From NCBI GenBank assembly GCA_036172245.1, contig JAYWIR010000026.1, positions 2,976,001-3,020,693 on the forward strand: a stretch of 44,693 nt of DNA, written 5' to 3'. Origin of the DNA: Raillietiella orientalis. Lineage: Eukaryota. A program made the position numbers and the translations under genes. Below the pieces are notes generated by a model. The model was not told the DNA's origin. It did not search any database and was given only the letters and a program-made list of their open reading frames with translations. Position 1 is the first letter of the stretch, and every line of letters begins with the position of its first letter. This document shows, in pieces, positions 3,801 to 29,269 of this stretch.

Positions 3801-5529
3801 ACCAACTGCGCGAAGCCGATGAACAAAATTTTACAGTGCGAATGACGGGTTGCAAAGCAGAAAGGGTCTGTCCAAGCAGTGGAGAAGGGTTCTTTTAGCA
3901 ACTCGCAAATGATGCTCGACCCTGAACTCTCAAGACCTGGCGTATTACCAGCAGGAAGAGTTCGATTTATTTGGTAAAGTCGGCAAACCCTCGAATAAAT
4001 ACGCAAAAATATGGAAAACTGCCAAAATGAGCCAGAACACTTGACCAAATGTGCAAAAGTACATTGCTTATCTCAGAAACCCGACTTTTAAAGTCAAACA
4101 GTCGAATCCATCAACAAAGAGGGGGATAAGAACACAAAAACCGATTCATCAACGTCCTTCTGGCAAGACTGGCTGCTTAAGAAAAGACCAGAAGAGCAAT
4201 CTCACAAGTTTCAAGTTTTCTGTCTCCAGGACGACTCCTGCACCAATCATGCAACGCAAAGTTAATCAGTTGGTATCCCAGCGACTCCGTTATTCCTGCC
4301 GTATTCCTAGAAGATCAGATACTCAGGTTCTTTATCTGCAAGCGCTGAAACGAGTACAGAAAAAAAGCAATACTTCCCTCTACGGAGGCTCGAAGCTGAT
4401 AATGCATGCTTCAATGAGAGAAGTAATCAGCCACTGCTGTCATCACCAGCAACCAGGTTCCCTTTGTGCTTCACGAAACGCTCAGACTTCAACAACTGAA
4501 GGGAGCGTTGAGTATGTAACAAAAGCTTCCTGGCGGCGGGTAAAAGGAGTACATGAAAAAAAAGAAGTTACGCTGTCCCTTGTGACCGACGTGCGAATGC
4601 TGCACAGAAGGAAGCCCTCGAATCGACCTAGCAGAGATCCTCATTCCTCCAAAAAACCACCATCGCAACAAAACTGAAGACTTTCAGAGGTTTTTGACGA
4701 CTATCCAGAGGCAATTCACAATGACAAATCCCTGAAGCATTGGACATTTCCAACCCCTGGTCAGTAATCACTCCTCGAGAAGCGAGGGCAACGGATGCGG
4801 CCTGAGACGATATGCCAACGGACATCATTGTTTACACAGCGACACTTCCGTTACCTTCTGTATTCCCGTTGACCAACGCTGTATTTAATGAAGAACTTCT
4901 ACAAGTCGGCACAAAACATTGGTCCCAAGAATCGTTTCAAAAATATACTTAATCCACTGTGAGGTAGATTTCTAATGCAGACCTGACATGTGACCATAGA
5001 CGATGGTTTCTTGTGAAACCATACGGGCACCCATCGAAAAACCCACTAGTCGGTGTAGGCAAAAATTTGCCGCTGCGATTCCTCCCCACGAATAACAATG
5101 ATGAAATGGCTGTCGGCGGAAGCACAAGAGCGAAAAAACAGCATCAGCGGATGCCAGCCCATTGAGAACAAACCGCAAGCAAAGCGCAACCGCGAGGACT
5201 AAAAATTCTTCCTGAGGACTGAAGAACCTTTTTCAAAATGCCATCCGCTTCGCATAGTTGCGTCTCTTCCAGATCATGCAGAGAAGCGAGAAAGCGTATA
5301 TGAGAAAGAAGCAGCCTCCGTCCGCCAGAAACCTCAGACTCTTAGTGGTAAAGTAGGAAAGACGACTTTGCTGTGACGTGTGCGTGCAGCGGCACTTTCC
5401 CCTCCAGGAGAAATTAAAGACGCTGAAATACTTGGCAGTGTCCACCTTTCGAAATGACTTCCCCGTGAGCACCGAGAAGTCTATGGTTCCACTGTATGCA
5501 CTCTTTTCCTCAAGTCCCATAAGGGGTGA

Positions 5530-6360
5530 ATGAATTTATTTTCTTTTATCATTCACTCTATATATCGATGCATTCATTTTCTCCAATCATTCAACCTGGA
5601 ATTCTTTTTCGTGAAATTAACACTCAGGTTCATCACACTTGGGGAACTGAACCTCGTTTATACCTGGACGTTGTCCTCAATCCTTCTCAGGATATGTCGT
5701 AGTTCCAGGCCTGTACTCTTCCACAGTTTCTTACGCCGGTCTACTTCTGGATAAGCCCTTTCAGGATTTCCATCGGAGATACGGCGGTGCTGGTGGTCTC
5801 CAGCTTCCACAATTGCACATAGATGGCGGTGATGAAGAGGGTGATGGTCAACCTAACCATGGGATTGTAATAGGGAACGTTCGCTTTCCTTGGAACACGC
5901 CTGCTAAAATTCCCATGGTCTATGTGATGAACAGCCCGATTACCCTTTTAAGGGCGTGCCACTCGTGGCATAGTGGGACAGATGAAGACGGGGAGACTTG
6001 CATCCTTGTCTCCACATGCTTTGAAGGCCTCATCCCCTCTTCGCCCGTGAAACCCTTCTTGGTTGTCACACAAATTTCCTCCATGATCAAACAACAGTGA
6101 CAAGTCACTCTTAGAGAGCGTCGTGCCGATCGCCAACAGCTTTATCTCAGCACTCCCGTGACGATCAGCGGCTTCTTGGAGGGCATTGGTGTCTTTTTCC
6201 TATTCGACTATTACTCCGCATTGGTTTCCCTTTGTTACCCTAGAACGCACGTAGATGCTGTGGTTTTTCCACACCTCATAGTTTCTATGAATCTTCCAGT
6301 TATCCTGTCAATGGATCGTAGCACTCAGGAGCATTAAAGGTACTTACATTGTCTCCATTA
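5530..6360 (-). pseudogene. Highly decayed 3' fragment of a different LINE ORF2 (zf-RVT-like C-terminus)
   Basis: Frame-jumping translation gives KACGDKDAS..VFICP..EWHALKRVIG and later RRKKLWKS, followed by an A-rich 3' end with AATAAA (~5536-5541). Confidence 0.35.
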
Positions 6361-6377: not shown

Positions 6378-7592
6378 TTTTTACCAGGGAAAGCCAGGGC
6401 TTTTATTACGAAAAAAAATGGATTGACGAAAGTCGATCCCACATGAGGCGGTGGGCAACGCAATCTATTATTAAATAGAAGAAGGTCTACCTTTCCCCGC
6501 AATCTGCACAATGGACATCCATTCTCCCGAATGCCCAGTGTGAGAAGCGTGCTCTGCTTAAAAGTCCCCAATGGAGCAGAAGCAACGCCGTCTCCTGCCA
6601 CTGCAGGGGAAGGGTGCCGTTTTCCCAAGACGCTGGGGGCCGCTCCACCTCCTCTGGAGGTATATCGAGAAGCTCACCCCAGCACACAATTCCATTCGGC
6701 AAGACACTCGAGGTTGCATCGTCCGCTAGTTCCCAAGACGTCCACGCCTTTATAGGTATTCTCCTGCCTCCGATGAGGCAAGTCACTTCCCACGATGCCT
6801 CCTGTTGGCTGTCCCTGGCTTCTCTGAGGGAAGGCAACACGGGGGTAAGGGGGATGAAGGAAGCATACAGAAGTTTCTGTGAGTTCGAAACGATTTCCTG
6901 CAGTGGCTGGTCAGCGTACCTGCCTCGACGGAGGCAGGTACGCTGACATCGCTGGAGCTGACATCGCTGGAGTTGTTGATTATGCCCCCACGTCGAAACG
7001 GACTCCTGGAGCCAGGTAGTTTTGTGCGCGGGAACGCAGAAGATCCACGTGTTGTTCTTCACCAAGGCAACCAAGTCGCGTAGCTCAAAGCCACTATTGT
7101 CATGACTACGGTCGTTAGCCACTAGGAATGCGATCAATTCGGTAGCAGACGGTTACCCTATTGGCAAGGAGTCTTGTAAGCGCGCACAATGACTCTGTCC
7201 TTTTTCTTGCCAGCAGGGAGTGTTAGAGAATTTGCAGCTGCAGCTCCATGCCCTCCATCCTCAGAAAGTCCAAGCGACCGTCCCTTAGTTGAGCGCAAAG
7301 CTCTTTTAATCGGAAAAAGACCTCCCTGTACCCCAAAGCGCTTTTCTTATGAGGCCCCTTGTCCGTGTACTTACTTGACGAGAAAGTGTGAACACAAAAA
7401 GCAGGGAGCGGAGAAGGGTGGCCACAAAAGCGTTCCCCGCCGAGCCCCGTCCCGGCAAGAGGAAGTTGCCTTCCCGGAACGGGCCAATCGCCAGCTCTAC
7501 TTACTTTAGACGACCTGACCAGGCTTCAGACGGGTAGAAGTCCCTCAACGGAACGTCAAGGTACTACAGGTACCTAGCCGTGGGGATCCCTG
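6378..7592 (-). mobile_element. Element H: old 5'-truncated, internally deleted L1/Tx1-like copy (E-like C-terminus)
   Basis: GIPTARYL...VELAIGPFREG near 7590-7470; WGELLDIPPEEVERPPASW...WQETALLLLHWGLLSRAR...CADCGER (ORF 6487..7137); degenerate family terminus AATAAAAG-CCCTGG-CTTTC-CCTGG-TAAAAA at 6378-6407. Confidence 0.75.
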
Positions 7593-9663
7593 AGCGGTAT
7601 TTCGCCGCAGCGTTTATCATAAAAACAAACCTTAACAAAGACGTGCAATGGCTGGACCATTGCGCCAGCAACGCAGGAAGAAACACAGAGCCTGCCCGGT
7701 CACCTGTTCGCAGACCGGTACGGTCCACCATGGCAACAAAGGGAAGGAGGAAAAAACAAAAAAACAAAACAAAAAGAAAACAAAAAATGGGAAGGTACGG
7801 GAAGGGATCACTGTAGCTGGTGGGGCTGTTTCATCCTTTCCAGGATGCTGGCAAGCTCTTTCTGCATCCCGGGATCCAGGTATGGCCATCGCGACGCCCT
7901 CCTCGAGAATAAGACGGCGCCCTGGATGGCACCCTTGTCGCGTGGTACTCTCGTAGACGTGCTCCACGCGGCGACGATCCCGCGAAGGCAGCACAGGGTC
8001 GCTATCGAGCCTGCTGGCCGAAGGGAGTCGGCAACAAAGAGGGCTTTAAGAGCGTCCCTGGGGCTGCTGCAGGGGATTATGATGGCCGCGGCAAAGCATA
8101 ACCAACGGGGCCGAAGGGCAACACAATCCACAAGCTGGTTGGGGAAGGAATCCCGTTCCCCACACCTGACACATTTGGGGTCCATTGCACCCCAGGTCCA
8201 GTGGTGTCGGCAAGCGTTGCAGGGGAGTCCCTGGTGTTGCAACAGGAGTGCCGAATCCTGCCATTTTAAGGGGAGGTGGAGGTGTTCATCAGCACTTCTA
8301 GAAGCTCCCGCCAGCGCAAAAGTCCAATAAGGGTGGTAATCCGGGCCGCAGTATCGCAAACAATGCCCGTTTTCCATTTCCCCAACTTTTTCTCCGCACG
8401 AGAGACTTCCGCAACAACTTCCCATACCGCCGCAGTGTTGCTGTTCAGTTGGTCTACGAGGGAAAACAGCATTGCAGCGAGGGGAGTTTTCCTCGCACAT
8501 GCTCGTTTTTGAGGATTCTACAAGATCGCCCGGAGCGTGAGGCGGTGGTTGCGCGCAAGCAGTTGTATCCGATGTTGCACGGCGCGTTGCTCGTTACTCC
8601 TCTTCCACGTGTAAATGGTTTCCTGGAGCCAGGCTGTTCCGTTAACAGGGCGACAGAAGAGCCATCCCGCGTTCTTCTTCATCAGATCAGCCACTCTCCG
8701 CAGCTGCAACCCGCAGTGATCAACTTGGCGGCGACGACGGAGAGCAAGGAAGGATGAGAGTCTCACTTTGCCTGTTGCCTGTTCGACGAGGAGACTTGCG
8801 GGCTCGCACCAGCCGCTACTACAATACTTAGCTACTAGGGCGAGTAACCGAAACCCGAGCTTAAGCTCCAGCCGCTCCAGCGTCAGGAGGCCGAGCTCGC
8901 CGTTACTACGCGGAGCGCTCAAGTCCGAAAGCCGGACTCGAGCCCTCACTCTACCCCAAAGGGCAATCCTTAGGAGGTCCTTCGTCCGCTTTTTAGTCTC
9001 TGTGGTGAGGGGACAAACAAAAAGTAGGGAACGAAGGAGGGGGGCTGAGAACGCGTTCAACACTGCGGCCCGCCCCGGCAGGAAAAATCTGCGGCCTTGA
9101 AACGAGCCGATCGCAATCTCTACCTTCTGAAGGCAGCTGGATCACGCATCCGAAGGAAGAAAATCCCCCATCGGTACACTGAGGTACTTGAAGTAACGTA
9201 CCGTGGGGATACCCGAACAGACCCAGTCCGGCTGCCCTGCCCACGCCGCACCGATTGGCATGACGGACGACTTCGCCCTGTTCACCTTTAGCCCAATTCC
9301 CCGACTTAGCAGGTCAAAGGAACTCCTCGACCGCCGATGACGGGGTGGACATAGGGAGCAGCAGCAGAAGGTCGTCCGCGCATGCTGACACCGCAGGCGT
9401 ACCGAGACAGTCGCGTGGCAGGTGCGCTAGAGTTTCCCTGTACGCTCTCAGTAGCAACTCGAAGTAGGTACTAAAGAGCTAAAGACTCAGGCTGTCTCCC
9501 TGCCGTATACCGCGTCGCACCGGTACGCCCTACACGGTGTGTCTACTGAAAAAGATCTGGATGGGCGCGTCGCTCCAGCGGTATCGCAGGTAGGTCAGCA
9601 AAGAGACCGGGAAACCCAAGCGTGACAGGAGCTCCAGCAGGAGCCTCTAATGTATAATAGAAT

Positions 9664-9664
9664 G

Positions 9665-9698
<34 letters not shown>

Positions 9699-12033: not shown

Positions 12034-15000
12034 TTGCCCCCCGGGTGGGCCCGAAGCGTTTATTATTAAAACACTACAATAACGTGGTATCAGGCTCCAC
12101 TAACAGCCACACAACACCGGACCTGCCGGGATGCCGGGACGCAGCCCGGCGTGGCACTCTTCGACAGCGAAGGGGGATGGGGTAAAAACAAAAAGCAAAA
12201 ATAAAAACAAAAAGAAAACAAAAAGAAGTTGGAGGGCAAGGACGGGATAACAGTTCACGGGTTGGAGGAACCATCCGTTGAAGGAAGTTCTCAAGGTCCT
12301 TCTGCATAATTGCCAGCAGGGAACATCCATCAGCTCTCCGCATGAAGCTGATTGCATACAGGGAGACTTCCCCCTCGTTTATGTCCCGATCATCGTTGTT
12401 TGGCATCGCTCCAGGCCGCCACGATGCGTAGGACGAAACAAAGTGCTGCGTGGGCTGCGACAGGTTGCAGGGCGTTCCGCACGACGAGGAGGCGGAAAAC
12501 GTCTCTAGGGGTGCTGCCCGTCGGGAGACCCAGGGTCGACCCAAACCGTTCCCAAAGGGGTCCAAGGGCAGCACAATCCACAAAAAGTTGGAAGAGCGAT
12601 TCCCGCTCCCCACATCTGGCACATGCAGGATCCACAGCTCCCCTTGTCCAGTGGAAGCGGCGCGCGTTGCAGGGTAGACCCCAGTGCAACAGAAGCAACG
12701 CCGACTCTTGCCACTCAAGGAGCAGAATCCTGGATTCTAACATAAGCGGGGGCCACTTCAGCACATCCATGGGAATATCGAGTAGCTCGCCCGATCTCTG
12801 TATTCCTCGGAGCTGAACGATCGGGGTCGTGGCGTCGGCAAGTGATCCTGTAGTCCAGCCGCTCGTCAACTTCTCGCGTCCCTCGATGCAGCAGGAGACT
12901 TGCCACCTTGGCGTCCGGCTGCTGTGAAGTGCCCTTATCAGGAAGAACAGCGCCGTAGCTAAACAGGTCGTCTCTGCCCACGTGCTTCTTGCTGGACTCT
13001 CCAGGAGATTCCGCAGCGTGCAGTAAGCGTAGGGGCTGCATCGGAGACGATTCCACGTCTCGTGGTTCCTCTGGTTAAAGACTGCCCACGTACCAATATT
13101 CTCTTCAAGCAACGCGGGGGAGTTGGCGGGGCAGCAAACCATCCACCTGTTCTCCTTGGCCAATGTTGCCATGCGCTCGAGCAGTAGGCCGCATATTCGC
13201 ATCTTCCGGCCACGGCTCAAAAGAAAAGACGCGAGTCCATCGCACCGGGACACACGGCTGGCAAGGAGGCGGGCCGGAGTGCACAGAAGGGTGCTCCACA
13301 TCTACGCTGCGATGGCGAGGGTTCGCCACCGCAGCTGCTTCTCCACGCGCTCCAGCGTCAGGAGGCCAAGACCGCCGTCCAGACGAGAAGCGCGCAAGTC
13401 CTTCAAAGGGACTCGGGGCCCCCCCTTGCCCCAAAGGGCGATACGGAGGAGGTCCTTTGTCCTCTTCTTGGATTCCACGGTGGAAGGGCAAACAAAAAAC
13501 AAGGGGCGAAGGATGTGGGCCTCAAAGGCGTTCCTAACCGCGGCCAGTTCCGGCAAGTGAAACTTACCTTCGAGGAACGGGCCGATCGCCGTCTCGACTT
13601 TTTGGAGGCAGCTGGAACACGCTTCCGCAGGGGAGTAGTCCCCCAACGGCACACCAAGGTACTTGAAGCACCTCGCCGTGGGGATCCCCAGACGGACCCA
13701 GTCCTGCTGCCCTGCCCACGCCGCACCTATTGGCACAACCGACGACTTCGCCCTGTTAACCTGCAGTCCGGTCCCGCGGCTGAGCAGATCGAAGAAGTCT
13801 CCGACCGCCTTTGCCGGGGTGGACATCGGCAACAAAAGCAGAAGATCGTCGGCGTACGCTGCTACGGCGGGCGTGCCGGGGCACGAGCTCGGCAAGGGGG
13901 CCAAAGTCACCCTGTACGCTCTCAGCACCAACTCAAAGTAGGTGCTAAAGAGCAGGGGACTGAGGCTGTCGCCCTGCCGTATGCCCCGCCGTACCGGCAC
14001 GCCGTACGCCATTTGACCTCTGAAAGAGATATTGATCAGCGCGCTGCGCCAGCAAGAGCGCAGGTAGGTCAGTAGGGAGGGAGGGAAGCCCATGCGTCCC
14101 AGGAGCTCCAGCAGGAGATCCTGGTCCAAGCAGTCAAACGCTTTGTGCAGATCGACTGCGATCGCTAGGGCTCCCTTCCCCACCTGGGAGTCCTGTCCCT
14201 GCCCGGCTGACGCCCCCAAAGCGGGGCTGCCAATCCTTCCCTCTTCCTTTTCTTCACTAGTCTGCACATGAAACCATGTGCTCGCGAAGAAGAGGTGGCC
14301 TCCATACTTCGCCCTGGAACAGCGTAAGTCTACTCCGGGCTAATTATGGAATTGGCCACCTGCCCGAGACGCGAAGCCCACAGTCCGGCGATCAACTTGG
14401 CGTCCGTGTTCACAATTGTGATCGGACGCCAGTTGCTGAGTTCCCTGAGGTCTCCTCCTTTCGGAAGGAGCCTCACTCTGGCTGACCGAAACGAGGCGGG
14501 TACATCGCCTTCATCTCGGATCAGCCTTGTCAACTCAAGCACCAGGAGTGCCAACTCTGCCGCGAAGCATTGAAAAATCTCCGCAGGCAGGCCGTCTTCC
14601 CCTGGTGCTTTCCGCCTCTTGAGCCTTTTGATACCGGCGAGAATTTCGCCGGTGGTAAAAGGCTCGTCGAGGCTTTCCTTCTCCTCCTCCCCTATTGCCG
14701 GGGCACCGTTCGGAAGCAAGCGCCAAGAGGTATCTTGGTCCGGGGGCGCCCTGGCGTAAGGGAGGAATGAAAACGCCGCACGAGGTGCCGTATTCTAGCC
14801 GGAGCCGAGTGCTCCCGGCCCTGGTCGTCCAGCAAGCTGGCCGATCCGGATTGCCAGGCTTGACGTTCGGCCTCGGCTCGGTACTCTGCCAGGCGACGGA
14901 CATTGGGGGTCCTCTCGTACCGGCGGGCTTGTAAATAAGCCCTATGGTTCCGAGCCCCCTACCCAAATCCGGGGGGCAGGCGGTGCAGGGGAAACTCCTC

Positions 15001-15383
15001 GCAGAACTCGCGGACCGAGGCCTTGAAGAGGTCCCAATCCTTGAGACTGCGGAGGGTGACGCCTCTCAGGAATTCGCGAAGGTGTTCCTTCGCACCTGAG
15101 AGTCGCGTCCAGTCCCCCGGCAGACGCCAATCCCTGGATGGCGGTCCTTTGTCGCGAGGCCGCATCTCGAACATTAGCCGGGAATGGTCCGACAACGTCG
15201 ACACAACCCTCCCCCGTTTGCCGACGCGTGAACACAGGTCAGCGTCCAGGAAGACGTGGTCGATGCTGCGGACCATTCCTTTCTCACCCGCGAACAAGTT
15301 GCGCGCACGCATGGCGGCGCACAACTCGTTCATCGCGTTCTCTTGTGTTTCTGGCTCACCTGTTAGCAGACGGAGATTGAAAT
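12034..15383 (-). mobile_element. Element A, 3' part (APE C-terminus, RT, zf-RVT, 3' UTR)
   Basis: FNLRLL...SDH, KAPGEDGLPAE, WRPITIVNTDAK, VDLHKAFD, GIRQGDSLSPLLF, AYADD, KYLG, CARCGERES; terminus AATAAACGC-TTCGGG-CCCA-CCCGGG-GGGCAA at 12034-12064; several lesions. Confidence 0.9.
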
Positions 15384-15696
15384 TTATCACCCGGTCACGC
15401 CGGGGCGTTTATTAATAATAATAAACTGGTCAGGGACAATGTCCCCAACCAAGAGAACGACAGAGAACATAGAAAAATTACCGGCACGCAGGCCTGGTAA
15501 ACAAACCGCTCGCAGCGTGGGGGGAATGAGGGGAAACAAACAAAAATCAAAAACTGGAGGGAAGGGTAACGGGTTTTTGGTTAGGCTCCGTACTCACGGG
15601 GATTCATACGATGAGCACCTAAAATGTTCCGGAGCCTATGGGGACGCGGGTGTAAAAAGAAAATACAAATTTAGTTTATGGAGGGTAGGGCAATGA

Positions 15697-18600
15697 TCAC
15701 CGGGTTGGCCGCTGATGATGGTGTGTAAACCGGCGGTGTATTGCGGCGAGATTCCTCTTTGTCTCCTCTGTCAAATGAGGCCATCTAGCGGATGCTCCCA
15801 TGTAGAAGGATGCTTTGCTGATTACCTCTTGGTGCTGTCCGTTGATTACCAACGCCTGGCGGACGGAAACTATCGCGCGTATGCAACCGATGGTTGCAAT
15901 CCTTGCGCTTAGTGAAAGCCTGCTCGGCGTGAAGAATCGTCGCAGCAAGTCTCTTGCGGTGTCCACGGGATGCAATAGTGCTGTTGCTGCCTACGCCACA
16001 GTCCTTGTAGGACACCGCAGTCCAGAAGTAGGTACGGAATCGACTCCGTGGATCCGCACCGAACGCAGTTCGCAGACGCAAGTCCCCCGGAGTCACGATG
16101 CCAACGCTCGTTGCACTGAAAACCCCAGTGAACGAAAAGCAGCACGGCTTGTTTCCAAGCAAGGGGGAGCAGCGAACTGTCCATACACTGTGGAGGGACT
16201 ACAAGTTCTTCGGGGGTGACAGCAAGTTCTTCTGCCCACCGGAGGAGTCCCTTTGCAGTAACACGAGGAGTGGCGGCGTCCGCCAACTCACTTGTCTTCC
16301 AGGTGCCAAGGAGTTTGGTTCTTCCCGCTATCGTGCAGGAAAACTCCCACCTCGCCGGTTGGTAACTGTCGTTTCTTGCCCTGAGGGCAGACAGCGCTGC
16401 GGCAAGAGGCGTGGCAGCCAGGGTAGAAAACTTCACCTCGTACTGCAGTACTTCTTCCAAGGATCGTGGAAAAAATTGGCGCAGGGGGCGAAGATCTTCA
16501 GGGCGTATTCCTTGGAACGCCGCCCAGGATTCAACAGACTCCTGGCGCCAAGCTTCAAAGTTCATTGGGCGGCAGGAGATCCAAGAGTGTGCTTCCAGAA
16601 GTGCGGTCAACTGCCGCAATGGAAAACCGAAACCCCGCTTTCTGTATTGAGTGCCCGGCAAAAGCGAGAGAAATCCTCCGCTGCCGGCGCATCTCCGCAG
16701 GAGAATGCGAGCTGGCACACACAGGGGGGATGTCCATAGCTGGGCACACAGTGCCAGCAGTCGGAACTGCACCTGCAGTCCGATTCGCTCCATTGTCAGG
16801 ATACCCAAACCGGCATCCCGACGCGGAGCTGACAAATCTTTAAGGCGGATCCTGGATCTCGCCGGACCCCAGAGAGCGTTCCTGAGCAGGCGCTTAGCCC
16901 GCTGTTTTGCCGCATAGGGGGGGTCCAAAACAAAAAACAGGGGACGAAGGAGGGGGGCCACAAAGGTGTTCCAAATAGTCGCCCGTTCCTGCAAGGTAAA
17001 CTTGCCGTTAAAGAACGGGCTGATGGCCAACTCTGCTTTCTGAAGACAGTCCGCTCACGCTTCGGCTGCGCCGAAAGCGCCCAACGGAACGCCAAGGTAC
17101 TTAAAGTACCCGCCCGTGGGGATCCCCAGGCGGATCCAGTCGGACTGCCCCTCCCACGACGTACCCACAGGAACGACCACGCTCTTCTCTCTGTTCACGC
17201 TCACGCCCGCTCCCCGACGAATCAGGTCGAAAAAATCCTCGACACTGGACGCCGGGGTGGACATGGGGAGCAGAAGAAGCAGGTCATCAGCGTAGGCGGC
17301 CACGGCAGGCGTTCCCGGGCAGGAGCTTGGCAAGTGAGACAGCGTCAGCCTGGATGCTCTTAGCACCAACTCAAAGAAGATGCTGAAGAGCAACGGGCTT
17401 AAGCTGTCGCCCTGTCGGATGCCCCTACGAACGGGAATACCATACACGCGGCAGCCGCTGAAAGTAATGCAGGTTAGCGCGTGGCGCCAGCACACGCGCA
17501 AATACAGCAGGAGTTGCGCCGGGAACCCAAGGCGTTCCATAAGCTCCAAAAGCAGCTTCTGGTTTACGCAGTCGAACGCCTTGTGGAGATCGACCGCGAC
17601 CGCCAAGGCACCTGGCGTTCCCTCCTGCCGTCGGCGCCTGTTCTTTTTGCCTGCAACAGTGACTTTCGCAGCAGCTTGGCTTTGCTGCGCCACAACTTCC
17701 TGCAGCTGCATCCATGTACGCGCGAAAAGGATGTTCGCCTCCATGGATCGTCCCGGAACCGCGTAGGTTTGTTCCGGGCTCACCACAGATTCCGCGATTC
17801 TTCCTAACCGCGCGACCCACAGATTGGAAAACAACTTGACGTCCGAGTTCACCAAGGTGATCGGACGCCAGTTGTTAAGTTGGCGCAAGTCTCCGCCTTT
17901 CGGCAGGAGACGCACCTTCGCTGAGCGGAAGGAATCAGGGACATTCCCGGATTCACTCATCAGCGTCGCGAGTTTAAGCATCAAGGGAATGAGCTCCACT
18001 GCAAAGCACTGATGAAACTCTGCAGGGAGCCCATCCTGGCCTGGCGCCTTTCGTCTCTTCAGCCCAGAGATGGCGGACGAAAATTCATGCGCCGTGAAGG
18101 GCTCGTCGAGACGTTCGCGTTCCTACTCGCCGACAACACGAGCATCCTGAGACAGGAGTATCTCAGAAAGAATATCCTCCGTCGGGGATTCCGCGTAGAG
18201 CGAGGAGTAGTAGCGTCTCACAATGCGGCGTACTTCGGCTGGGGCCGAACATTCCTGGCCCTTGTCGTCCAACAGGCATGCTGCTCCGGACTGCCAGACC
18301 TGGCGCTCGGCCTTCGCCTTGTACTCTGCGAGACGCCCGACATCCGCGCGTCTCGAAAACGTGCGGGCCTGCAGAAAGTCTCTACTGTTGGCCACGCCCT
18401 CTCCGAAACCGCGTGGAAGCCGGTGCAAGGGGAATTGGCAACAGAACTCGCGGACAGATCTTTTGAGATCGTCCCAGTCCGCAAGTTCTTGAATGGCAAA
18501 GCCTCGGAGGTATCCACGTAGATGCTCCGCAGCCTACGGTTGGGTAAGCCAATCCGCCTGCATCCTCCAGTTTTGCAACGGAGGTCCCCTGCCTGGCGGA

Positions 18601-19289
18601 AGGATCTCAAACTCCAACCTGTGGTGGTCAGAAAGCCTAGTCAACAATCTTCCTCTCCTACCCACACGCGAATGCAGGTTTTCATCCAGGAAAACGTGAT
18701 CGAGCGATCTTTCCATTCCAGGTTCGCTGACCGTCAAGTTGGCAACGTGCACGGACGCGCACATCTCGATGGGAAGCGCGCGCTCCCTCGGGCGGCTCCA
18801 ATCGTCGGAGAGCAGGCGGACGTTGAAGTCCCCAGCGACGAGGTGCGCCACTTGGAAGCCGGAGTTGTTGAGCCACTGGCTCTGCACCTCACCAAAGAAA
18901 GCTACTCTTTCTTCGAGGTAGCGAGAGCCACTCGGCGCGTAGACGTTCGTAACGACGAGATCGATGGACTCGGACCACTTGATGACAAGCTGGCATATCC
19001 GTCCGTTGTCATCGAAACGAACACTACGCACCGCTTCCGCCATTTTTCCTCTTACGAGGAACGCGACGCCGCACGTGTGTGCGCCGCCGCACCGCCAATG
19101 TAGCCTTCCGCCTGCGCGCTCCTCGATTTCGGCTGCCTGCTCGTCGGAGATTACGTGAATCTCCTGCAGCAGCGCGAGTTCGAAGGGGCGCAGTGCGTTG
19201 GCTACTAATCGCCTCTTCTCGTCGTTCTGCAGTCCGTTCACGTTCCAACACGTTACGGACAGACGACGAGAAGACGCGATTCCCCGCAT
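15697..19289 (-). pseudogene. B ORF2 (APE-RT-zf-RVT), frameshifts and stops
   Basis: MRGIASSRRLSVTCWNVNGL..LLQEIH..NVYAP..AGDFN..SLDHVF..SDH; RT with GIRQGDSLSP and YADD; CVRCGSTESIPYLLLDC. Confidence 0.9.
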
Positions 19290-21233
19290 TACTGCTGGGA
19301 AGGTGGCGGCTTCTTGCTCGCTTTATCCGGCGAGCAGACGGCGAGCAGCACGACTGGCTGGAGGGGACGGTCGCCACCGTCCTCTGTCGTGCTGCATGCA
19401 TGTAATGCCTCCACGCCAGGCTGAACCCCGTCGGGTTTCGTGGAGACTTCGCGTTGCTTCGCGGCGAGCGTTGCCTGGCTGCCTACTTTTGATCGGCGCG
19501 CACACGCTTTCGAACGAGTTGTCCTCGTCTCGGTGATCGGAACGGCATCCATTTCGGAGTCCGACCGGCGCATGTTCGATCGGGTTTCGGCCTTCCGCAA
19601 AGCAGTGACAGGTTCTGCTGGATTGACAGCTGTCCTGTTTTCGTTTTCCGTCACCAGAGCATCGCTTTTGGTGACGGCTGCTTTCCCGGCGCGCGCGTTT
19701 TCAGCGTGCTCACGCGCAATTGCACGAGGGACCTTTGCTGAAGTCTTCTTTACTTCATTACGGTTCCTCACTTCGCGTGGCGCCGCAAATGGAGATTGTG
19801 CTCCATGGCCATCTTTGAAGCCATCCGCGTCTTTGGACGGGAGCACTTTCGATGGCTCCGACACGCTCGTCATGGACGCTGCTTTCGGAAGGGCTTTTAA
19901 TCCCTTCGTTGGCATGGCATCCGCGCCAGTCCAGAGCTTGCTCTCCGACTGCGACGGCGTGAGATTTTTCTCCGCTTTCGCGGTGTTGGATCGCGACGCG
20001 GATTTTTTTTTGCCGACTTTCGAAGTCGACACGGCGCAACCCTTCTTACCCGATTTGGGCTTCTCAGCCACTGCAGGAGGTGAAGGAATGGATCTGACGG
20101 TACTGGAAGTGTCCTTACCGCCGTTGTCCATTGGCGTCCCCGCCGGTTGCTCGAACTCCGAGAGAGCCTGCGTGCTTGGGAAGGACACCTATTGCGCCTA
20201 GGGGGACTTACCATTGCCCCGGATTCCCCGCACCCTTTCTTTTCGGCTCCCCTGCCGCGAGAGGGGGTGCGCAGGGCTTTGCGTGCGAGGTTTCCTGCTG
20301 CTTTGGGGCGACATTCCGCCTCGCGTTTTTACCGAATTTCTGCCGTGGGGTCTCCAGGTTTTTCGCAGATTTTTTCTTTTTATCCGCGCTTTGTTTTCCA
20401 GGATGGAGCTCCGCGGCTGCCTTTTTTCGCATGAGATCCGGGCAATTTTTCAATTGGTGCCCGGATAGTTTGCAATAACGGCATTTTCCAGAGGGGCATT
20501 TATCCAAACAATGCCCCTCCTTCCCGCATTGCTCGCACGTTTTTACTTTGCCCACGAACCACAGGTGAACGACCGTGTCTTTCACCTGTAGTTTCGTGGG
20601 CAGCAGACGGCGGTCCGGCATTGTAAGCCGGACTCCAGCGACTCCGCTGTGTATGGACGAGAAGTTCTTGAGGTTGCTACGCACCCTCCACAGCGCATGG
20701 ACCGTGGCGAATTTTGCCAACGCGTTCCGAATATCAGTATCGGAGATTTCCGACTCGATGTCGAAAATCTCCACCACAAATGAGTCGTCCATGGCGGCCG
20801 GGAAGACCTTCTGGCCACGGATCGACAGCGGGGTGCGCAGCAAGCGTTGCACAAGTGCAGCGTCTTTGCAACGCACCTTGAAATAGCCCATGTCTTTTAC
20901 GGGCATAATGGCGAGAAGGTCCTTCTCCCGCACGCCAACACGGGTCAGTTCATCGTTGAACTGATTCCCGTCGCGCGCAGAAAGAAAACCACTCACCTTA
21001 TATCGGAGAGCAGGTCTATAGCCTTGGGCTACATATGCCCGCAACTCCGACTCGTCGAGTGGTTTCCCTTTGACGGCTGCTGTGGCAGCAACGTCAGCAA
21101 AACCCCTCTCCATTGGCGAGAAAGACGAGGTGGAGGCGGCCGTCGGTTCCGCGATTGCAGATCCAGATGCTGTTCCTCCAACTTCAGTAGCTTCAAGTTG
21201 GGTCGACATCGTCGTCAAAATGTACAACGCCAA
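19289..21233 (-). pseudogene. B ORF1 (RRM-like region plus two CCHC knuckles plus long basic/disordered tail), broken near 20190-20215
   Basis: CEQCGKEGHCLDKCPSGKCRYCKLSGHQLKNCP; ORFs 20208..21233 and 19289..20188. Confidence 0.85.
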
Positions 21234-21270
21234 GATGAAGCGGATGAAAGCACGGAGACGAGAGCGAAGA

Positions 21271-21287
21271 AAAACACGTCCGCACTC
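21271..21287 (-). promoter_or_regulatory. Conserved 5'-terminal motif G(A/G)GTG(C)GGACGTG(T/C)TTT (representative copy)
   Basis: GGACGTG within ~7-11 nt of the 5' end in A, B, C, E and F; variants in G (GGACAGG) and J (CGACGTG). Confidence 0.55.
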
Positions 21288-21296
21288 GATTGAAAT

Positions 21297-23606
21297 CTCC
21301 CGCTATCAGGTGAGCCTTCCGCACGTTCGTGTCCGCCAGCCAGTCGCGCTTCAGGGAATCCAGCAGCCTGGTACGGTCGCTGTATCCCTGTTTACCGCTG
21401 GGGGCGTACACATTCGTGACGATCAATTCGATCGAGTCGGACCAGTTGAGAATCAGCTGACCGACCCGACCGTCGTCATCGAAGCGCACGCCCTTCACGG
21501 CCGCGTCGATGGCCGGCTTCACGAAGAACGCGACCCCGCAGGTGTTGCGGAGGCCGCACCGCCAATACAGCCGACCCCCCGCGATCGTCTCGATCTCTTG
21601 GGCGTCTGCCGCGGTGATCACGTGGATCTCCTGCAGCAGGGCCAGGTCGAGCTCACGCAGGGTGTCGGCCGTATCTCGCCTGTTACCGTCGTCGCGCAGC
21701 CCGTTGACGTTCCAACAGGCGGCGCGAATCCGACGGCGACTGGCGAGCCCAGGTGTTCTTCCTGGGAAGATGGCGATGCGGCGTCCGCCACCTGTTGGGG
21801 CGGGACGCTAGGTGGAGGAGGAGGGTCAGGCGCTGCGTGCACCTGGTCCCCCTCCTCCATGGGCAACGGCGCGTCGAGGGGGTCACCCTTAAGTGGGGTG
21901 GCGCCTACCTGTTGGCCCTCCTCCATGGGGGCGGGCTGTTCAGGCTCGGCGACTGCAGGGAGGACTTCGCCCCCCTGCTCACCCTCCTCCATGGGGGTGG
22001 CCGGCTCGACGGCTTCCGAACGTTGGAGTTCCCCCTCCGGGATTCCCACGCCACCGCTACCTTCCTGCTTCTCCTCCTCGCTGGTGGAAGGGAGGCGCCT
22101 CCTGGGTTTCTGGGACTTGCGTCCCGACTTCATGGGGGGTGCCTCCGAGGAGGAGGATGCACTTCCGGCCCCCAGGTCCGACTCACCTGTGGGGGCCTTT
22201 TTCGCGGGAGCCGGCCTTCGCACGGCCTTGCGTGAGGGGTTCTCACGCTCCGCCAGCGTGGCCGCGAGCTCCTCCGCCGCCTTTGCGAACGCGGCGTCCG
22301 CAGTGTCGACCGGCGCGTCGCGCGGCTCACCCTCTGTGTAAACAGAGGGTTCGCCGTCGCCAACCTCGGGCGCGGCGGAAACGGCGAGGGAAGGCTCGTC
22401 GCCCCGGGTGGCAATCTCGGGAACGGCTATGCGCTCCAGTGCTACCGTACACTCCCGCATGGTCTTAGAGCGCGGCCCAGGTTTTTTCACCTTGCCGGCT
22501 GTCTTTTTTACCGCTTTCGCGGGTTCCGCGGGGTGCACCTTTTTCTCCTTCCTGGCCTTGACCAGCTGCCAGCCGTCTTGGACTCCCGTATCTTCGGAGG
22601 GTTTTTCTTCCGACGCCTGTGTGGGAGGAACAGGGGCTAGCGGCTGCTGCCGGCCAGTATCTCTTTTTGGTCTTTCGACCAGTTTACTGCGTTTTGCCTG
22701 TGCTTTTTTTGCAGCAGGCGGCACCGGAGTGGGGCGTTTAGGGCATACGCGGCGTACGTGGCCCTTCTCCCCGCATAAGTGGCACACAATGTTCGGGCAC
22801 CGCTTGCGCAAGGGTCCTACTGCATTGCAGTAGCCACAAAAGCGGGGTTTCCCCACGTACCAGAGGTCTACGACTTCGCCATTGACCTCTAGTTTGTGGC
22901 GAAGCCCACTCTCGTTCACCGTCACGCGCGCGGCGGCCTGCCCTCCGAAAAGGCTATCGTAGCCATCGAAGATTGTGGCCTTTGGCCAAAGCGCGTGAAC
23001 ATTCCCGTACTTTCTTAACTGATCACCAGCCGCAGACCGCGTCATGCGGCTGGTGATCCCTGTCAGATGGACCACTACGGAGCGGTCCATCGTGACTGGT
23101 AGGATCTTGCGTCCGTCCACGTTCAGCGGGGTGGTTATCAAGCTTTGCGCCAAGGTGATGTCCTTGCAGACAACCTCAACGCGCTGACCCCCGCTTAGCA
23201 CGGAAAGACCGTCAAGGACCTTTTCCAACACGTTGGCGTTCTGCAGCGCTTTCGAAAAATCGCGTGCAGTTCGCCCGTCAAAGAGATTGCCTACCTGGTA
23301 AACCAAGCTGGGCTTGTACCCAGCTGCCCGGTAGGCCGCCATCTCGGCCATGGTTTCAGCGCTCGGCGCGGCCACCATGGCGCTCCAGCTCCTCGCCTTG
23401 AGCGGCGAGGGCGATTCCGGGGCGGACGCCCCTGATTCTGTAGGCTGTGGGGGTGGGCAAGCCTCCATCACACCTACCTCCATCGTGGTGTCCTCAGGCA
23501 TCGCTGCCATCGGACACCAACGATGTTCCGCACTAAACAACACAACAAAAAACCGCTTCCTGTCGACTCACTCGGGAGCGAAGGAAACACACGTCCACTC
23601 GCCAAG
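21297..23606 (-). mobile_element. Element A, 5' part (5' UTR, ORF1, N-terminal APE up to GDFN)
   Basis: Near-identical by eye to C 26960-29269; the APE is cut at AGDFN by B. Confidence 0.92.
21618..23510 (-). CDS. A ORF1 protein (gag-like, RRM-like region plus CCHC knuckles), open reading frame
   Basis: Uninterrupted ORF from MAAMPED; FCGYCNAVGPLRKRCPNIVCHLCGEKGHVRRVCP (first knuckle H>P relative to C). Confidence 0.85.
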   Translation of the reverse strand: MAAMPEDTTMEVGVMEACPPPQPTESGASAPESPSPLKARSWSAMVAAPSAETMAEMAAYRAAGYKPSLVYQVGNLFDGRTARDFSKALQNANVLEKVLDGLSVLSGGQRVEVVCKDITLAQSLITTPLNVDGRKILPVTMDRSVVVHLTGITSRMTRSAAGDQLRKYGNVHALWPKATIFDGYDSLFGGQAAARVTVNESGLRHKLEVNGEVVDLWYVGKPRFCGYCNAVGPLRKRCPNIVCHLCGEKGHVRRVCPKRPTPVPPAAKKAQAKRSKLVERPKRDTGRQQPLAPVPPTQASEEKPSEDTGVQDGWQLVKARKEKKVHPAEPAKAVKKTAGKVKKPGPRSKTMRECTVALERIAVPEIATRGDEPSLAVSAAPEVGDGEPSVYTEGEPRDAPVDTADAAFAKAAEELAATLAERENPSRKAVRRPAPAKKAPTGESDLGAGSASSSSEAPPMKSGRKSQKPRRRLPSTSEEEKQEGSGGVGIPEGELQRSEAVEPATPMEEGEQGGEVLPAVAEPEQPAPMEEGQQVGATPLKGDPLDAPLPMEEGDQVHAAPDPPPPPSVPPQQVADAASPSSQEEHLGSPVAVGFAPPVGTSTGCATTVTGEIRPTPCVSSTWPCCRRST

Positions 23607-23823
23607 GGTTTCGGCGTTGCCACCCGGGTACGCCCGGGGCGTTTATTGATAAACTTTACATGCGTGGTACAAGGCCCCACCACGGCCGTAAACACAGGAC
23701 CTGTCATGACACCGGGACGCAGCCCGGCGTGGCACTCCCCGACAGCGAAGGGGGATGGGGATGAGACAAAAAGTAAAATAAAAAAAGAAACAAACAAAAA
23801 GAAGTTGGAGGGCAGGGAAGGGA

Positions 23824-26800
23824 TCACTGGTCGCTGTGGGGCGGGCCCATCCGTCGAACGAAGCCCTCGAGGTCAGCCTGCATATTCCCCAGTTGGGGCC
23901 ATCCGGCAGCTCTTCGCAAGAAGCGTTTGGCATACGGGATGACATCCCTCGCCTGTGGACCCACTCCTTCGTTGTTGGCGTCGCTCCATGCCGCCACGAT
24001 ACCACGGACGCAGCACAAGGCTGCGATGGCTGCGGCTGGCTGCAGTGCGTCCTTCACGAAGAGGGGCCGAAGAACGTCTCTGGGGGTGCTGCCCGTAGGG
24101 AGCCCGAGGGTCGTCCCGAACCGTTCCCAAAGGGGTCGGAGGGCAGCACAATCCACAATAAGGTGGGGAAGCGACTCCCGCTCCCCGCACCTGGCACACG
24201 CAGGATCCACAGCCCCCCTCGTCCAGTGGAAGCGGCGCGCGTTGCAGGGTAGACCCCAGTGCAACAAAAGCAACGCCGACTCTTGCCACTTGAGGGGCAG
24301 GATCCTGGATTCCTTCATCACCGGGGGCCACTTCAGCTCATCCCTGGGGATGGCGAGCAGCTCGCCCCATCTTAGTAATCCTCGCGGCTGGACGCTCGGG
24401 GTCGAGGCGTCGGCCAGTTCTCCTGTTGTCCAGCCGCTGATCAACTTCTCCCGTCCCTCGATGCAGCAGGAGACTTGCCACCTTGGCTTCCGGGTGCTGT
24501 GAAGTGCCCTCCTTAGGAAGGGTAGCGCCGTAGCTAGGCAGGTCGTCTCTGCCCACGTGCATCTTGCTGAACTCTCCAGGAGATTCCGCAGCGTGCAGCG
24601 GGCGTAGGGGCTGCATCGGAGACGATTCCACGTTTCGTGGCTTCTCTGGTTGACTACTGCCCACGTTCCAATATTCTCCTCCAGCCAGGCGGGGGAGTTG
24701 GCGGGGCAGCAAACCATCCAGCTGTTCTCCTTGGCCAATGTTGCCATGCGCCCGAGCAGTAGGCCGCATCTTCGCATCTTCCGGCCACGGCTCAGAAGAA
24801 AAGACGCGAGTCCATCGCACCGGGACACACGGCTGGCCAGGAGGCGGGCCGGAGTGCACCAAGGGGTGCACCACATCTTCGCTGCGATGGCGAGGGTTCG
24901 CCACCGCAGCTGCTTCTCCAGTCGCTCCAGCGTCAGGAGGCCAAGACCGCCGTCCCGACGCGGAGCGCACAAGTCCTTCAGTGGGACTCGGGGCCTCCCC
25001 TTGCCCCAAAGGGCGATACGGAGGAGGTCCTTCGTCCTCTTCTTGGATTCCACGGTGGGGGGGCAAACAAAAAGCAAGGGGCGGAGGATGGGGCCGCGAA
25101 GGGGTTCCAAACCGCGGCCCGTTCCGGCAAGTGAAACTTGCCTTCCAGGAACGGGCCGATCGCCGTCTCGACTTTTTGGAGGCAGCTGGACCACGCTTCC
25201 GCAGGGGAGTAGTCCCCCAACGGCACACCAAGGTACTTGAAGCACCTCGCCGTGGGGATCCCCAGACGGACCCAGTCCTGCTGCCCTGCCCACGCCGCAC
25301 CTATTGGCACAACCGACGACTTCGCCCTGTAAACCTGCAGTCCGGTCCCGCGGCTGAGCAGATCGAAGAAGTCTCCGACCGCCTTTGCCGGGGTGGACAT
25401 TGGCAACAAAAGCAGAAGATCGTCGGCGTACGCTGCTACGGCGGGCGTGCCGGGGCACGAGCTCGGCAATGGGGCCAAAGTCACCCTGTACGCTCTCAGC
25501 ACCAACTCAAAGTAGGTGCTGAAGAGCAGGGGGCTGAGGCTATCTCCCTGCCTTATGCCCCGCCGCACCGGCACGCCATACACCTTTTGACCGCTGAAAG
25601 AGACGGTAATTATCGCATTCCGCCAGCAAGAGCGCAGGTAGGAAATCAGGGAGGGTGGAAAGCCCATGCGACCCAGGAGCTCCAAGAGAAGTTCCTGGTC
25701 TACACAGTCGAACGCCTTGTGGAGATCGACTGCGAGCGCTAGGGCCCCCTTCCCCGCCCGGGGGTCCCTTTCCAGCCCGGCTGGCGGCCCCAATGTGGGG
25801 TTGCCGACTTTCCCTATCCCTTTCTTCTCTCTTCTCTGCAGGTGCACCCATGTGCTTGCGAAGAAGAGGTTGGCATCCATACTTCGCCCGGGAACAGCAT
25901 AAGTCTGCTCCGGGCTAATTACGGATTCTGCCACCTGCCCCAGACGCGAAGCCCATAGCCCTGCGATCAACTTGGCGTCCGTATTCACGATCGTGATCGG
26001 ACGCCAGTTCTTTAAATCCCTCAGGTCTCCCCCTTTCGGCAGGAGCCTCACTCTGGCTGACCGAAACGAGGCGGGAACATCGCCTTCGTCTCGGATCAGC
26101 CTGATCAACTTAAGCAGCAGGGGTGCCAGCTCTTCCGCGAAGCTCTGAAAGAACTCCGCGGGCAAGCCATCTTCCCCTGGAGCTTTACGCCTCTTGAGCC
26201 TTTTGATACCGGCGAGAATTTCGCCGGTGGTAAAAGGCTCGTCGAGGCTTTCCATCTCCTCCTCCCCTCTTGCCGGGGCGCCATCCGGAAGCAAGCGCTG
26301 AGAGGCGTTTCGATCCGGGGGCTCCCTGGCGTAAAGGGAGGAATAGAAACTCCGCACGAGATGCCGTACCGACGCCGGGGACGAACATTCCCGGCCTTGG
26401 TCGTCCAGCAAGCTGGCCGACCCGGATTGCCAGGCGTGGCGTTCGGCCCCGGCGCGGTACTCGGCCAGGCGACGAACATTAAAGGTTCTCGCGTACCTAC
26501 CAGCCTGTAAATAGGCCCACTGGTTGCGAGCACCCTTGTTGAATCCGGGGGGCAGGCGATCCAGGGGGAACTTCTCACAGAACTCGCGGACCGATTCTTT
26601 AAAAAGGTCCCAGTCCTGGAGATTCCGGAGCGTGACGCCTCTCAGGTATTCGCGAAGGTGTTCCTTCGCACCTGAGAGTCGCGTCCAGTCCCCCGGCAGA
26701 CGCCAATCCCTGGATGGCGGTCCCTTGTCACGAGGCCGCATCTCGAAAATTAACCGGGAATGGTCCGACAACGTCGACGCAACCCTCCCCCGTTTGCCGA

Positions 26801-27419
26801 CCCGTGAACACAGGTCAGCGTCGAGGAAGACGTGGTCGATGCTGCGGACCATTCCCCTCTCACCCGCGAACAAGTTGCGCGCACGCATGGCGGCGCACAA
26901 CTCGTTCATCGCGTTCTCTTGTGTTTCTGGCTCACCTGTTAGCAGACGGAGATTGAAATCTCCCGCTATCAGGTGAGCATTCCGCACGTTCGTGTCCGCC
27001 AGCCAGTCGCGCTTCAGGGAATCCAGCAGCCTGGTACGGTCGCTGTATCCCTGTTTACCGCTGGGGGCGTACACATTCGTGACGATCAATTCGATCGAGT
27101 CGGACCAGCTGAGAATCAGCTGACCGACCCGACCGTCGTCATCGAAGCGCACGCCCTTCACGGCCGCGTCGATGGTCTGCTTCACGAAGAACGCGACCCC
27201 GCAGGTGTTGCGGAGGCCGCACCGCCAATACAGCCGACCCCCCGCGATCGTCTCGATCTCCTGGGCGTCTGCCGCGGTGATCACGTGGATCTCCTGCAGC
27301 AGGGCCAGGTCGAGCTCACGCAGGGTGGCGGCCGTATCTCGTCTGTTACCGTCGTAGCGCAGGGCGTTGACGTTCCAACAGGAGGCGCGAATCCGACGGC
27401 GACTGGCGAGCCCAGGTGT
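23824..27419 (-). CDS. C ORF2 APE-RT-zf-RVT (~1200 aa), one frameshift near 25092, no AUG start
   Basis: ORFs 24978..27284 and 23824..25458 join; motifs WNVN, QEIH, NVYAP, GDFN, IDH, SDH, PGEDG, WRPI, DLHKAFD, RQGDSLSP, YADD, YLG, CARCGERESLPHLIVDC. Confidence 0.88.
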
Positions 27420-29172
27420 TTTTCCTGGGAAGATGGAGATGCGGCGTCCGCCACCTGTTGGGGCGGGACGCTAGGTGGAGGAGGAGGGTCAGGCGCTGCG
27501 TGCACCTGGTCCCCCTCCTCCATGGGTAACGGCGCGTCGAGGGGGTCACCCTTAAGTGGGGTCGCGCCTACCTGTTGGCCCTCCTCCATGGGGGCGGGCT
27601 GTTCAGGCTCGGCGACTGCGGGGAGGACTTCGCCCCCCTGCTCACCCTCCGCCATGGGGGTGGCCGGCTCGACGGCTTCCGAGCGTGGGAGTTCCCCCTC
27701 CGGGATTCCCACGCCACCGCTACCTTCCTGCTTCTCCTCCTCGCTGGTGGAGGGGAGGCGCCTCCTGGGTTTCTGGGACTTGCGTCCCGACTTCCTGGGG
27801 GGTGCCTCCGAGGAGGAATATGCACTTCCGGCCCCTAGGTCCGACTCACCTGTGGGGGCCTTTTTCGCGGGAGCCGGCCTTCGCACGGCCTTGCGTGAGG
27901 GGTTCTCACGCTCCGCCAGCGTGGCCGCGAGCTCCTCCGCCGCCTTTGCGAACGCGGCGTCCGCAGTGTCGACCGGCGCGTCGCGCGGCTCACCCTCTGT
28001 GTAAACAGAGGGTTCGTCGTCGCGAACCTCGGGCGCGGCGGAAACGGCGAGGGAAGGCTCGTCGCCCCGGGTGGCAATCTCGGGAACGGCTATGCGCTCC
28101 AGTGCTACCGTACATTCCCGCATGGTCTTAGAGCGCGGCCCAGGTTTTTTCGCCTTGCCGGCTGTCTTTTTTACCGCTTTCGCGGGTTCCGCGGGGTGCA
28201 CCTTTTTCTCCTTCCTGGCCTTGACCAGCTGCCAGCCGTCTTGGACTCCCGCGTCTTCGGAGGGTTTTTCTTCCGACGCCTGTGTGGGAGGAACAGGGGC
28301 TAGCGGCTGCTGCCGGCCAGTATCTCTTTTTGGTCTTTCGACCAGTTTACTGCGTTTTGCCTGTGCTTTTTTGCAGCAGGCGGCACCGGAGTGGGGCGTT
28401 TAGGGCATACGCGGCGTACGTGGCCCTTCTCCCCGCATAAGTGGCACACAATGTTCGGGCACCGCTTGCGCAAGTGTCCTACTGCATTGCAGTAGCCACA
28501 AAAGCGGGGTTTCCCCACGTACCAGAGGTCTACGACTTCGTCATTGACCTCTAGTTTGTGGGGAAGCCCACTCTCCTTCACCGTCACGCGCGCGGCGGCC
28601 TGCCCTCCGAAAAGGCTATCGTAGCCATCGAAGATTGTGGCCTTTGGCCATAGCGCGTGAACATCTCCATAGTTTCTTAACTGATCACCAACCGCAGACC
28701 GCGTCATACGGCTGGTGATCCCTGTCAGATGGACCACTACGGAGCGGTCCATCGTGACTGGTAGGATCTTGCGTCCGTCCACGTACAGCGGGGTGGTTAT
28801 CAAGCTTTGCGCCAAGGTGATGTCCTTGCAGACAACCTCAACGCGCTGACCCCCGCTTAGCACGGATAGACCGTCAAGGTCCTTTTCCAATACGTTGGCG
28901 TTCTGCAGCGCTTTCGAAAAAGCGCGTGCAGTTCGCCCGTCAAAGAGATTGCCTACCTGGTAAACCAAGCTGGGCTTGTACCCAGCTGCCCGGTAGGCCG
29001 CAATCTCGGCCATGGTTTCCGCGCTCGGCGCGGCCACCATGGCGCTCCAGCTCCTCGCCTTGAGCGGCGAGGGCGATTCCGGGGCGGACGCCCCTGATTC
29101 TGTAGGCTGTGGGGGTGGGCAAGCCTCCCCCACACCTACCTCCATCGTGGTGTCCTCAGGCATCGCTGCCAT
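27281..29172 (-). CDS. C ORF1, one frameshift near 28370
   Basis: ORFs 28300..29268 and 27281..28201; CGYCNAVGHLRKRC and CHLCGEKGHVRRVC knuckles. Confidence 0.85.
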
Positions 29173-29269
29173 CGGACACCAACGATGTTCCACACTAACC
29201 AACACAACAAAAAAACCGCTTCCTATCGACTCACTCGGGAGCGAAGGAAAAACACGTCCACTCGCCAAG

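Follow-up and report, generated by a model that had tools for sequence, protein, structure and literature searches.

L1-group retrotransposons of Raillietiella orientalis with an AATAAA-hairpin 3' terminus and no poly(A) tail

Nested LINE copies at a contig end

We analysed a 44,693-nt stretch of the Raillietiella orientalis genome (the window), which is the end of a contig (C26) and consists mostly of nested LINE copies (Table 1). The genome has Wnt genes, and a RuBisCO small subunit was not found, as expected of an animal. The insertion point of the full-length element B is the endonuclease region of element A. The 3' end of B reads AATAAA-CGC-CCCGG-CGTGA-CCGGG-TGATAA, exactly as claimed by an earlier reading made from the letters of the window (the sequence-only reading), and is followed by the target duplication ATTTCAATC. 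Because ATTTCAATC is repeated at the 5' side of B, the hairpin and the six-base tail are part of the element. Rfam and tRNA scans gave nothing at gathering score, and the hairpin is not a small-RNA target. In addition to the predicted GC hairpin (P2), fold prediction yields a helix (P1), missed by the sequence-only reading, in which GTTTATTA pairs with TAATAAAC, the latter arm taking in AATAAA; the fold of the 50-nt end of B has a z-score of -2.44. A composite-element reading of the shared B/A junction was dropped, since the A/C flanks are unlike (89-98%), and is also countered by L010, a B copy truncated independently at that very site, and by tandem B copies.

Table 1. Elements, termini and junction features in the window.
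Feature	Position	Strand	Basis or description
Element B, full length, 5.9 kb	15384..21287	-	endonuclease and RT frames (Pfam), junctions
B 3' terminus	15384..15413	-	AATAAA, CGC, GC inverted repeat with 5-nt loop, 6-nt tail TGATAA
Predicted hairpin P2 of B, CCCGG-CGTGA-CCGGG	15390..15404	-	fold prediction
Predicted helix P1 of B	15407..15426	-	GTTTATTA (15426-15419) pairs with TAATAAAC (15414-15407)
3' copy of the 9-bp target duplication of B, ATTTCAATC	15375..15383	-	junction comparison
5' copy of the 9-bp target duplication of B, ATTTCAATC	21288..21296	-	junction comparison
Element A, split by B	12034..23600	-	junctions
A terminus	12064-12034	-	stem changes found in that single copy only
Element C, head-to-tail upstream of A	23617..29263	-	Pfam, junctions
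C duplication, ~16 bp	29279-29264 and 23616-23601	-	junction comparison
C terminus, 6-bp stem	23647-23617	-	sequence
Unoccupied B target within C	26959-26951	-	sequence
E terminus	35303..35332	+	long AU-rich predicted helix including AATAAA just before; z -3.58
Decayed terminus (F of the sequence-only reading)	7588..7618	-	GATAAA, GCGG/CCGC stem, altered tail
Decayed terminus of internally deleted E-type copy	6378..6407	-	inferred from sequence comparison
Degenerate terminus H	41087..41116	+	predicted P1 with one G-U pair
Half terminus I	41150..41168	-	3' arm and tail gone
Old family K terminus	5505..5540	-	AATAAA, other C-rich/G-rich hairpin, then AAA

The terminus strings that the sequence-only reading gave for C, E and A also match the DNA. 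The G-U pairs of the A stem are present, albeit as a single-copy state and not as a subfamily variant. The degenerate ends at 6407 (-) and 41087 (+) are probably those listed as G and H, and the half end at 41168 (-) is that listed as I. The 6407 end appears to be part of an internally deleted E-type copy; it was rejected as a family of its own, as 20 relatives (of 40 listed) run on as ORF2 or UTR with no terminus. For F, the claimed GCGG/CCGC stem is there, but AATAAA is not: this apparent C-G to G-C swap belongs to one copy, in which hexamer and tail are mutated as well, and its ORF2 relatives keep CCCGG/CCGGG. Seemingly compensatory CCTGG/CCAGG look-alikes (30355, -) were dropped because they lie antisense within ORF1 and share both flanks. 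The K terminus at 5540 (-) had been overlooked.

Several further features of the window are of note. Elements C and A stand head-to-tail (12034-29279, -) at one antisense site of another family, and their outer flanks differ, which suggests recombination between host copies. In full-length elements, GGACGTG occurs 4-13 bases in from the 5' end (21287-21275, 23600-23590 and 29263-29253, -); the motif resembles a downstream promoter element, and transcription would then start in the target DNA upstream of the element. A stretch of 28 A with GCTT on both flanks (9668-9695, +) lies within the aa-588 target site described below, a few bases in, is oriented like the insertions of groups 8 and 11, and is possibly poly(A) copied at that site. 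Positions 1700-4700 hold non-LINE frames with no Pfam match, including a direct duplication of ~270-290 bp (2227-2494 and 2520-2791).

A conserved 3' terminus without poly(A)

For sampling independent of the stem, the search was anchored on the C-terminus of ORF2; it covered 625 kb of cluster DNA, selected for its many B and A/C ends. The terminus was found at 94 of 111 anchors, compared with 3 of 330 shuffles. The 17 anchors lacking it comprise three degenerate ends, which were added back to give 97 ORF2-anchored ends, two copies of family K, one anchor at the sequence edge, and others that appear to be interrupted by other elements or not to be 3' ends. In the window, 5 places matched a loose pattern, one of them within an ORF, as 7 overlapping rows (shuffles: mean 0.76, with 7 reached in 1/100); two patterns run over the 210-Mb genome gave 156 and 96 matches against 0 in reversed controls. 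Three locus pairs with identical element end and flank (L033/L034, L039/L040, L168/L170) are probably segmental duplications, not separate insertions.

None of these ends carries a poly(A) tail: the longest post-stem A run is at most 6 in the 97 ORF2-anchored ends and at most 3 at 60 pattern loci, in keeping with the claim that only a few A's follow the stem. Long tails on young copies elsewhere, which would have spoken against this claim, were absent from the B copies checked. At A/C-pattern ends, a C directly follows the tail in 28/30 loci. Between 10 groups, the 30-nt terminus is 82% identical, compared with 57% for the adjoining 3' UTR. The sequence-only reading had also raised the prospect of SINEs sharing the tail; among 9 short-homology loci chosen from 30, we found no shared non-L1 head and saw no SINE partner.

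Target duplications, 9-17 bp long, fix the position of the 3' end. A full-length 5' junction was resolvable for 19 of 93 termini, five of which are uninformative tandem arrays; in all 14 informative junctions, the tail comprises six bases (13 directly, one after a one-base register shift). The same length was obtained for 12 5'-truncated copies, many of them in unrelated DNA, and for one further full-length copy, three of these 13 additional junctions being ambiguous by one A. No extra bases or 3' transduction were detected at any resolved junction. With loops of 4, 5 or 6 bases, the distance from AATAAA to the end varies from 23 to 25 bases, whereas that from stem to end stays at six, as determined by duplication for 5- and 6-nt loops and by target register for the 4-nt loop. 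Thus, of the claim that loops vary while the stem and its spacing from AATAAA are kept, the first part stands, and the constant distance is instead that between stem and end. The six-base tail across loop lengths is the strongest support for copying that starts at a fixed position relative to the hairpin, as the sequence-only reading had proposed. The terminal bases are usually YAA, and the ends mostly YAA or RAAA. A-free tails are weakened as proof against poly(A)-derived A's: TGAGGT occurs in one copy, and TGGCAT may owe its last bases to the target.

Clustering on the upstream UTR gave 35 groups, 13 of them multi-copy; RT identity among the six main groups is 59-82%. Setting aside tied positions in small groups, the majority stem is CCCGG/CCGGG in 13/13 multi-copy groups. 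As a consequence of this invariance, the five core P2 pairs show no covariation at the family level (13 multi-copy groups), contrary to what the sequence-only reading would lead one to expect. For the copy-level count, 94 copies were used, the half end, one mis-registered copy and F being left out; stems are perfect in 59/94 and imperfect in 35/94. The two kinds of change are equally frequent (C>T 17, G>A 17), as neutral decay would give; among the 94 copies there is no bias to pair-preserving changes, and the lone double change is not compensatory. A sixth pair closing six-base loops is G-C in groups 1 and 10 and A-U in group 11. Together with free loop variation and the conservation of the terminus, this difference lends indirect support to a structural role of P2. 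Family J (L061, L068, L071, L073) combines the exact hairpin and loop of B with an A/C-like UTR and the target motif CTCCC, so that loop identity alone cannot define a family.

In many copies, AATAAA is predicted to pair with an upstream U-rich arm. We tested P1 as pairing of AATAAAY with the upstream U-rich stretch: helices of at least 5 bp occur in 62/97 copies, which are not independent of one another, versus 15.8% of shuffles, and pairing exceeds shuffles (p<=0.05) in 6/13 multi-copy groups and 14/35 groups. G-U substitutions occur in groups 6 and 8, and the closing pair shows a C-G/U-A swap in group 2. The AATAAA arm shows no covariation at the family level; AATAAA is the majority state in 13/13 multi-copy groups (with ties in two) and stays even where P1 is weak or absent, namely in groups 9 and 12 and in part of group 10. 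Thus, the hexamer would be selected for more than pairing and, as some families lack P1, this helix is probably an accessory or alternative fold. By analogy with HIV-1, in which a hairpin over AAUAAA represses polyadenylation (PMC2645353), P1 could tune RNA processing.

Family K is a young, abundant and very divergent LINE with at least 40 matches at 94-100%; its loci include 5505-6200 (-) of the window and C26:161369-167067, and it has recurring target sites in other repeats. Its RT is 32-35% identical to that of the main clade, of which K is the sister in a quick tree (support 98). In 20 copies examined (of 40 listed matches), the hexamer is AATAAA (18/20) or AATGAA (2/20), followed in 20/20 by a C-rich/G-rich predicted hairpin of unrelated sequence and 2-4 A; none of the 20 has poly(A). 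The 3' flank is one of a few recurring targets. That K keeps the hexamer and has the hairpin replaced suggests that the former might be bound by a host factor and the latter by a co-evolving element factor.

Target sites and the start of copying

B targets one codon of the A/C endonuclease domain. Among the first 30 of 96 loci picked by the end alone (one being the window copy), 26 are B and carry the same end, with 17 at the A/C site, 4 in tandem and 5 elsewhere, all starting with A-Y-T-T or a one-base variant. Most families have their own fixed site in the ORFs of relatives: insertions of other groups are found repeatedly at group-specific positions of ORF2, for the most part antisense (~aa 285, 311, 502 and 588 in the frame of C), whereas insertions of groups 3 and 5 are scattered and the A/C target is looser, with just a short C-rich motif kept. 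The B target is an imperfect palindrome (window 26935-26980, -), and an inverted copy of the upstream target is present at the L010 5' junction and in the L072 and L088 3' flanks, as would result from fold-back and extension of the cut top strand.

The first base of the target duplication is C in A/C, J and K, and T in several families. Since most duplications do not start with A's, pairing between primer and poly(A) is not possible. In human L1, priming is described as efficient with as few as 4 matched bases, end mismatches being tolerated only if nearby matches compensate (PMC3649969). In these elements, RT would thus either prime without pairing or use RNA that carries read-through flank.

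We lean towards a reading in which ORF2p binds the predicted hairpin as a ruler and starts RT at stem+6, while AAUAAA serves host processing. The hexamer would be kept for host cleavage and polyadenylation, with the cut at or beyond the tail; ORF2p would recognize the shared stem and the family-specific loop, by analogy with ZfL2; and, once the endonuclease has nicked the family target, copying would begin internally at stem+6, so that poly(A) or read-through flank on the RNA would not be copied. Several points count against such a ruler. As the P2 core shows no covariation, sequence-only recognition fits too; stems are imperfect in 35/94 copies, in which pair-preserving changes are not favoured; the YAA ends are also those expected from cleavage at YA and copying from the first added A's, and the two apparently A-free tails are weak; and the predicted pairing of AAUAAA in many families would, by analogy with HIV-1, hinder the poly(A) signal. 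A rival is a precise poly(A) site, which we regard as rather unlikely: the host would cut at YA in the tail, the hairpin would set the distance from AAUAAA, and RT would start at the tail/poly(A) junction and copy just the first one or two A's. The prevalence of AATAAA in all multi-copy groups and in K, ends placed 23-25 bases past the hexamer start, a distance that a folded hairpin would make independent of loop length, and the requirement of SART1 for poly(A) in accurate starts (PMC7265360) are all in line with this; however, variable numbers of A would then be expected, whereas 28/30 A/C ends show no extra A, and primers from duplications starting with C or T cannot pair with poly(A) (cf. 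PMC3649969).

The ruler could coexist with read-through, in which the RNA would run into the target duplication of the donor and pair with the nicked strand. This pairing would set where copying starts as well as the first 4-5 bases of the target; the hairpin would be a tag for binding, and P1 would dampen cleavage at AAUAAA. We rate read-through as improbable, even though off-target B copies (L062, L090) differ in the bases before the nick but retain A-Y-T-T behind it, J keeps CTCCC in 4/4 and A/C-pattern loci keep C-N-N-C in 28/30. Most copies sit in their own target, so that the flank would supply matching bases, and R1Bm is said to require target sequence downstream (PMC7265360). However, A/C and J sites are C-rich before the nick too, as endonuclease recognition alone would give, and the resolved junctions show no 3' transduction. 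We place little credence in a non-polyadenylated RNA that ends by itself at stem+6, protected by the hairpin and copied from its very 3' end, with AAUAAA a mere part of a structural helix; the absence of poly(A) at every end and the excess, G-U substitutions and swap of P1 agree with it, but the AATAAA arm does not covary and the hexamer is also kept in groups with little or no P1. If the motif reflected no more than common descent or a palindrome of the DNA, RNA structure playing no part, this would account for the invariant core stem, with its palindromic CCGG, and for the neutral look of copy-level changes. This reading seems very remote given that the terminus is far more conserved than the adjoining UTR, that loop sequence and length and the sixth pair vary, and that K has a predicted hairpin of other sequence at the same place.

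A wider proposal, which we consider unlikely as a whole, is an animal L1 that dispenses with poly(A) priming and combines the hairpin ruler with donor-flank pairing, each family inheriting part of its target specificity from the site that its parent occupied. If true, it would describe a web of families, each knocking out one codon of a relative.

Relation to known LINEs

Judged by its proteins, the lineage belongs to the L1 group (L1/Tx1) of non-LTR retrotransposons. One frame of C contains an AP-type endonuclease (PF03372, aa 32-237) and, behind it, an RT (PF00078, aa 574-750); compared with solved structures only, the RT matches human L1 ORF2p best (E 4e-51, against 5e-15 for R2), with L2, RTE and CR1 not among the matches. 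The ORF2 C-terminus has a zf-RVT match just under the cut-off (E 2.8e-5) with invariant C, C, H, C columns, separate ORF1 frames carry CCHC knuckles, and many copies are 5'-truncated. The genomic 3' poly(A) of mammalian-type (relaxed) L1 is absent from the 97 ends and 60 loci, whereas target-specific insertion, a trait of Tx1 proper, and a conserved 3' sequence with a predicted stem-loop, a trait of stringent-type LINEs, are both present. The quick tree, built without named Tx1 families, groups the lineage and K in a clade of their own. The best database protein match is an unnamed protein (P0008; 71% identical), the other 41 of 42 being 22-32% identical. In other organisms, an ORF2 C-terminal scan gave no relatives, and an RT scan gave 80 distant loci of at most 41% identity, with the terminus motif in none. 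In literature outside most subscription journals and Repbase entries, we found no paper on the lineage or its terminus.

Mammalian L1 primes on poly(A), and an L1 ancestor recognizing a specific 3' structure is a proposal that rests on plant and algal cases. The contrast drawn by the sequence-only reading between poly(A)-primed L1 and stem-loop LINEs omits stringent L1-clade lineages, namely monocot 1a (LINE1-1_ZM with ZmSINE2/3) and Chlamydomonas L1-1_CR (PMC3472496, PMC3747384). These lineages share with the elements described here L1-clade membership and an inferred required 3' sequence. Monocot 1a has, as here, a conserved 3' end (~45-50 nt) with a predicted hairpin; however, its stem covaries and its loop and flank are conserved, whereas in the present elements it is the loop that varies, the stem being invariant. 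L1-1_CR carries a terminal poly(A), and each of the two known lineages has SINE partners; the present elements are from an animal host and have no tail, and no SINE was seen at 9 loci. The table of Ohshima lists no 3' repeat for 9/233 flowering-plant and 5/15 green-algal L1 families (PMC3472496, PMC3747384), so that tail-less L1s are not unheard of.

In ZfL2-1, ZfL2-2 and UnaL2, ORF2 binds the 3' stem-loop, with general recognition of the stem and specific recognition of the loop (PMC4176376), which is the likely working model here; however, those elements are of the L2 clade, whereas the present RT is nearest to human L1 ORF2p, and UnaL2 ends in TGTAA repeats (PMC3747384), unlike the present termini, which lack a terminal repeat. 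Tx1-Mar, Tx1-9_AMi and Tx1-8_Crp are likewise L1-group LINEs that prefer other transposons (PMC4494074), although the targets listed for them comprise DNA transposons, LTR elements, microsatellites and small-RNA genes instead of fixed codons in sister LINEs. Zepp of Coccomyxa C-169 also forms GC-rich clusters of nested LINEs (PMC3446292), as one self-nested family with one cluster per chromosome, whereas here there are many families, sites and clusters. R1Bm and SART1Bm resemble the present elements in being site-specific, with a recognized 3' UTR and an accurate start (PMC7265360), but are of the R1 clade, and SART1 copies keep a poly(A) of ~20 bases.

Thus, the R. orientalis elements are an L1-group case from an animal. 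Their many families have no poly(A) tail, share a start that is exact to the base and offer natural variation in the loop, the six-base tail and the target, which makes them a direct system for studying how an L1-type ORF2p picks its RNA and start site without poly(A). Builders of LINE-based insertion tools might also take an interest in the clean 3' junctions and the short target motifs. Stringent plant and algal L1s are known; what is new is an animal L1-group variant with a tail-less hairpin end.
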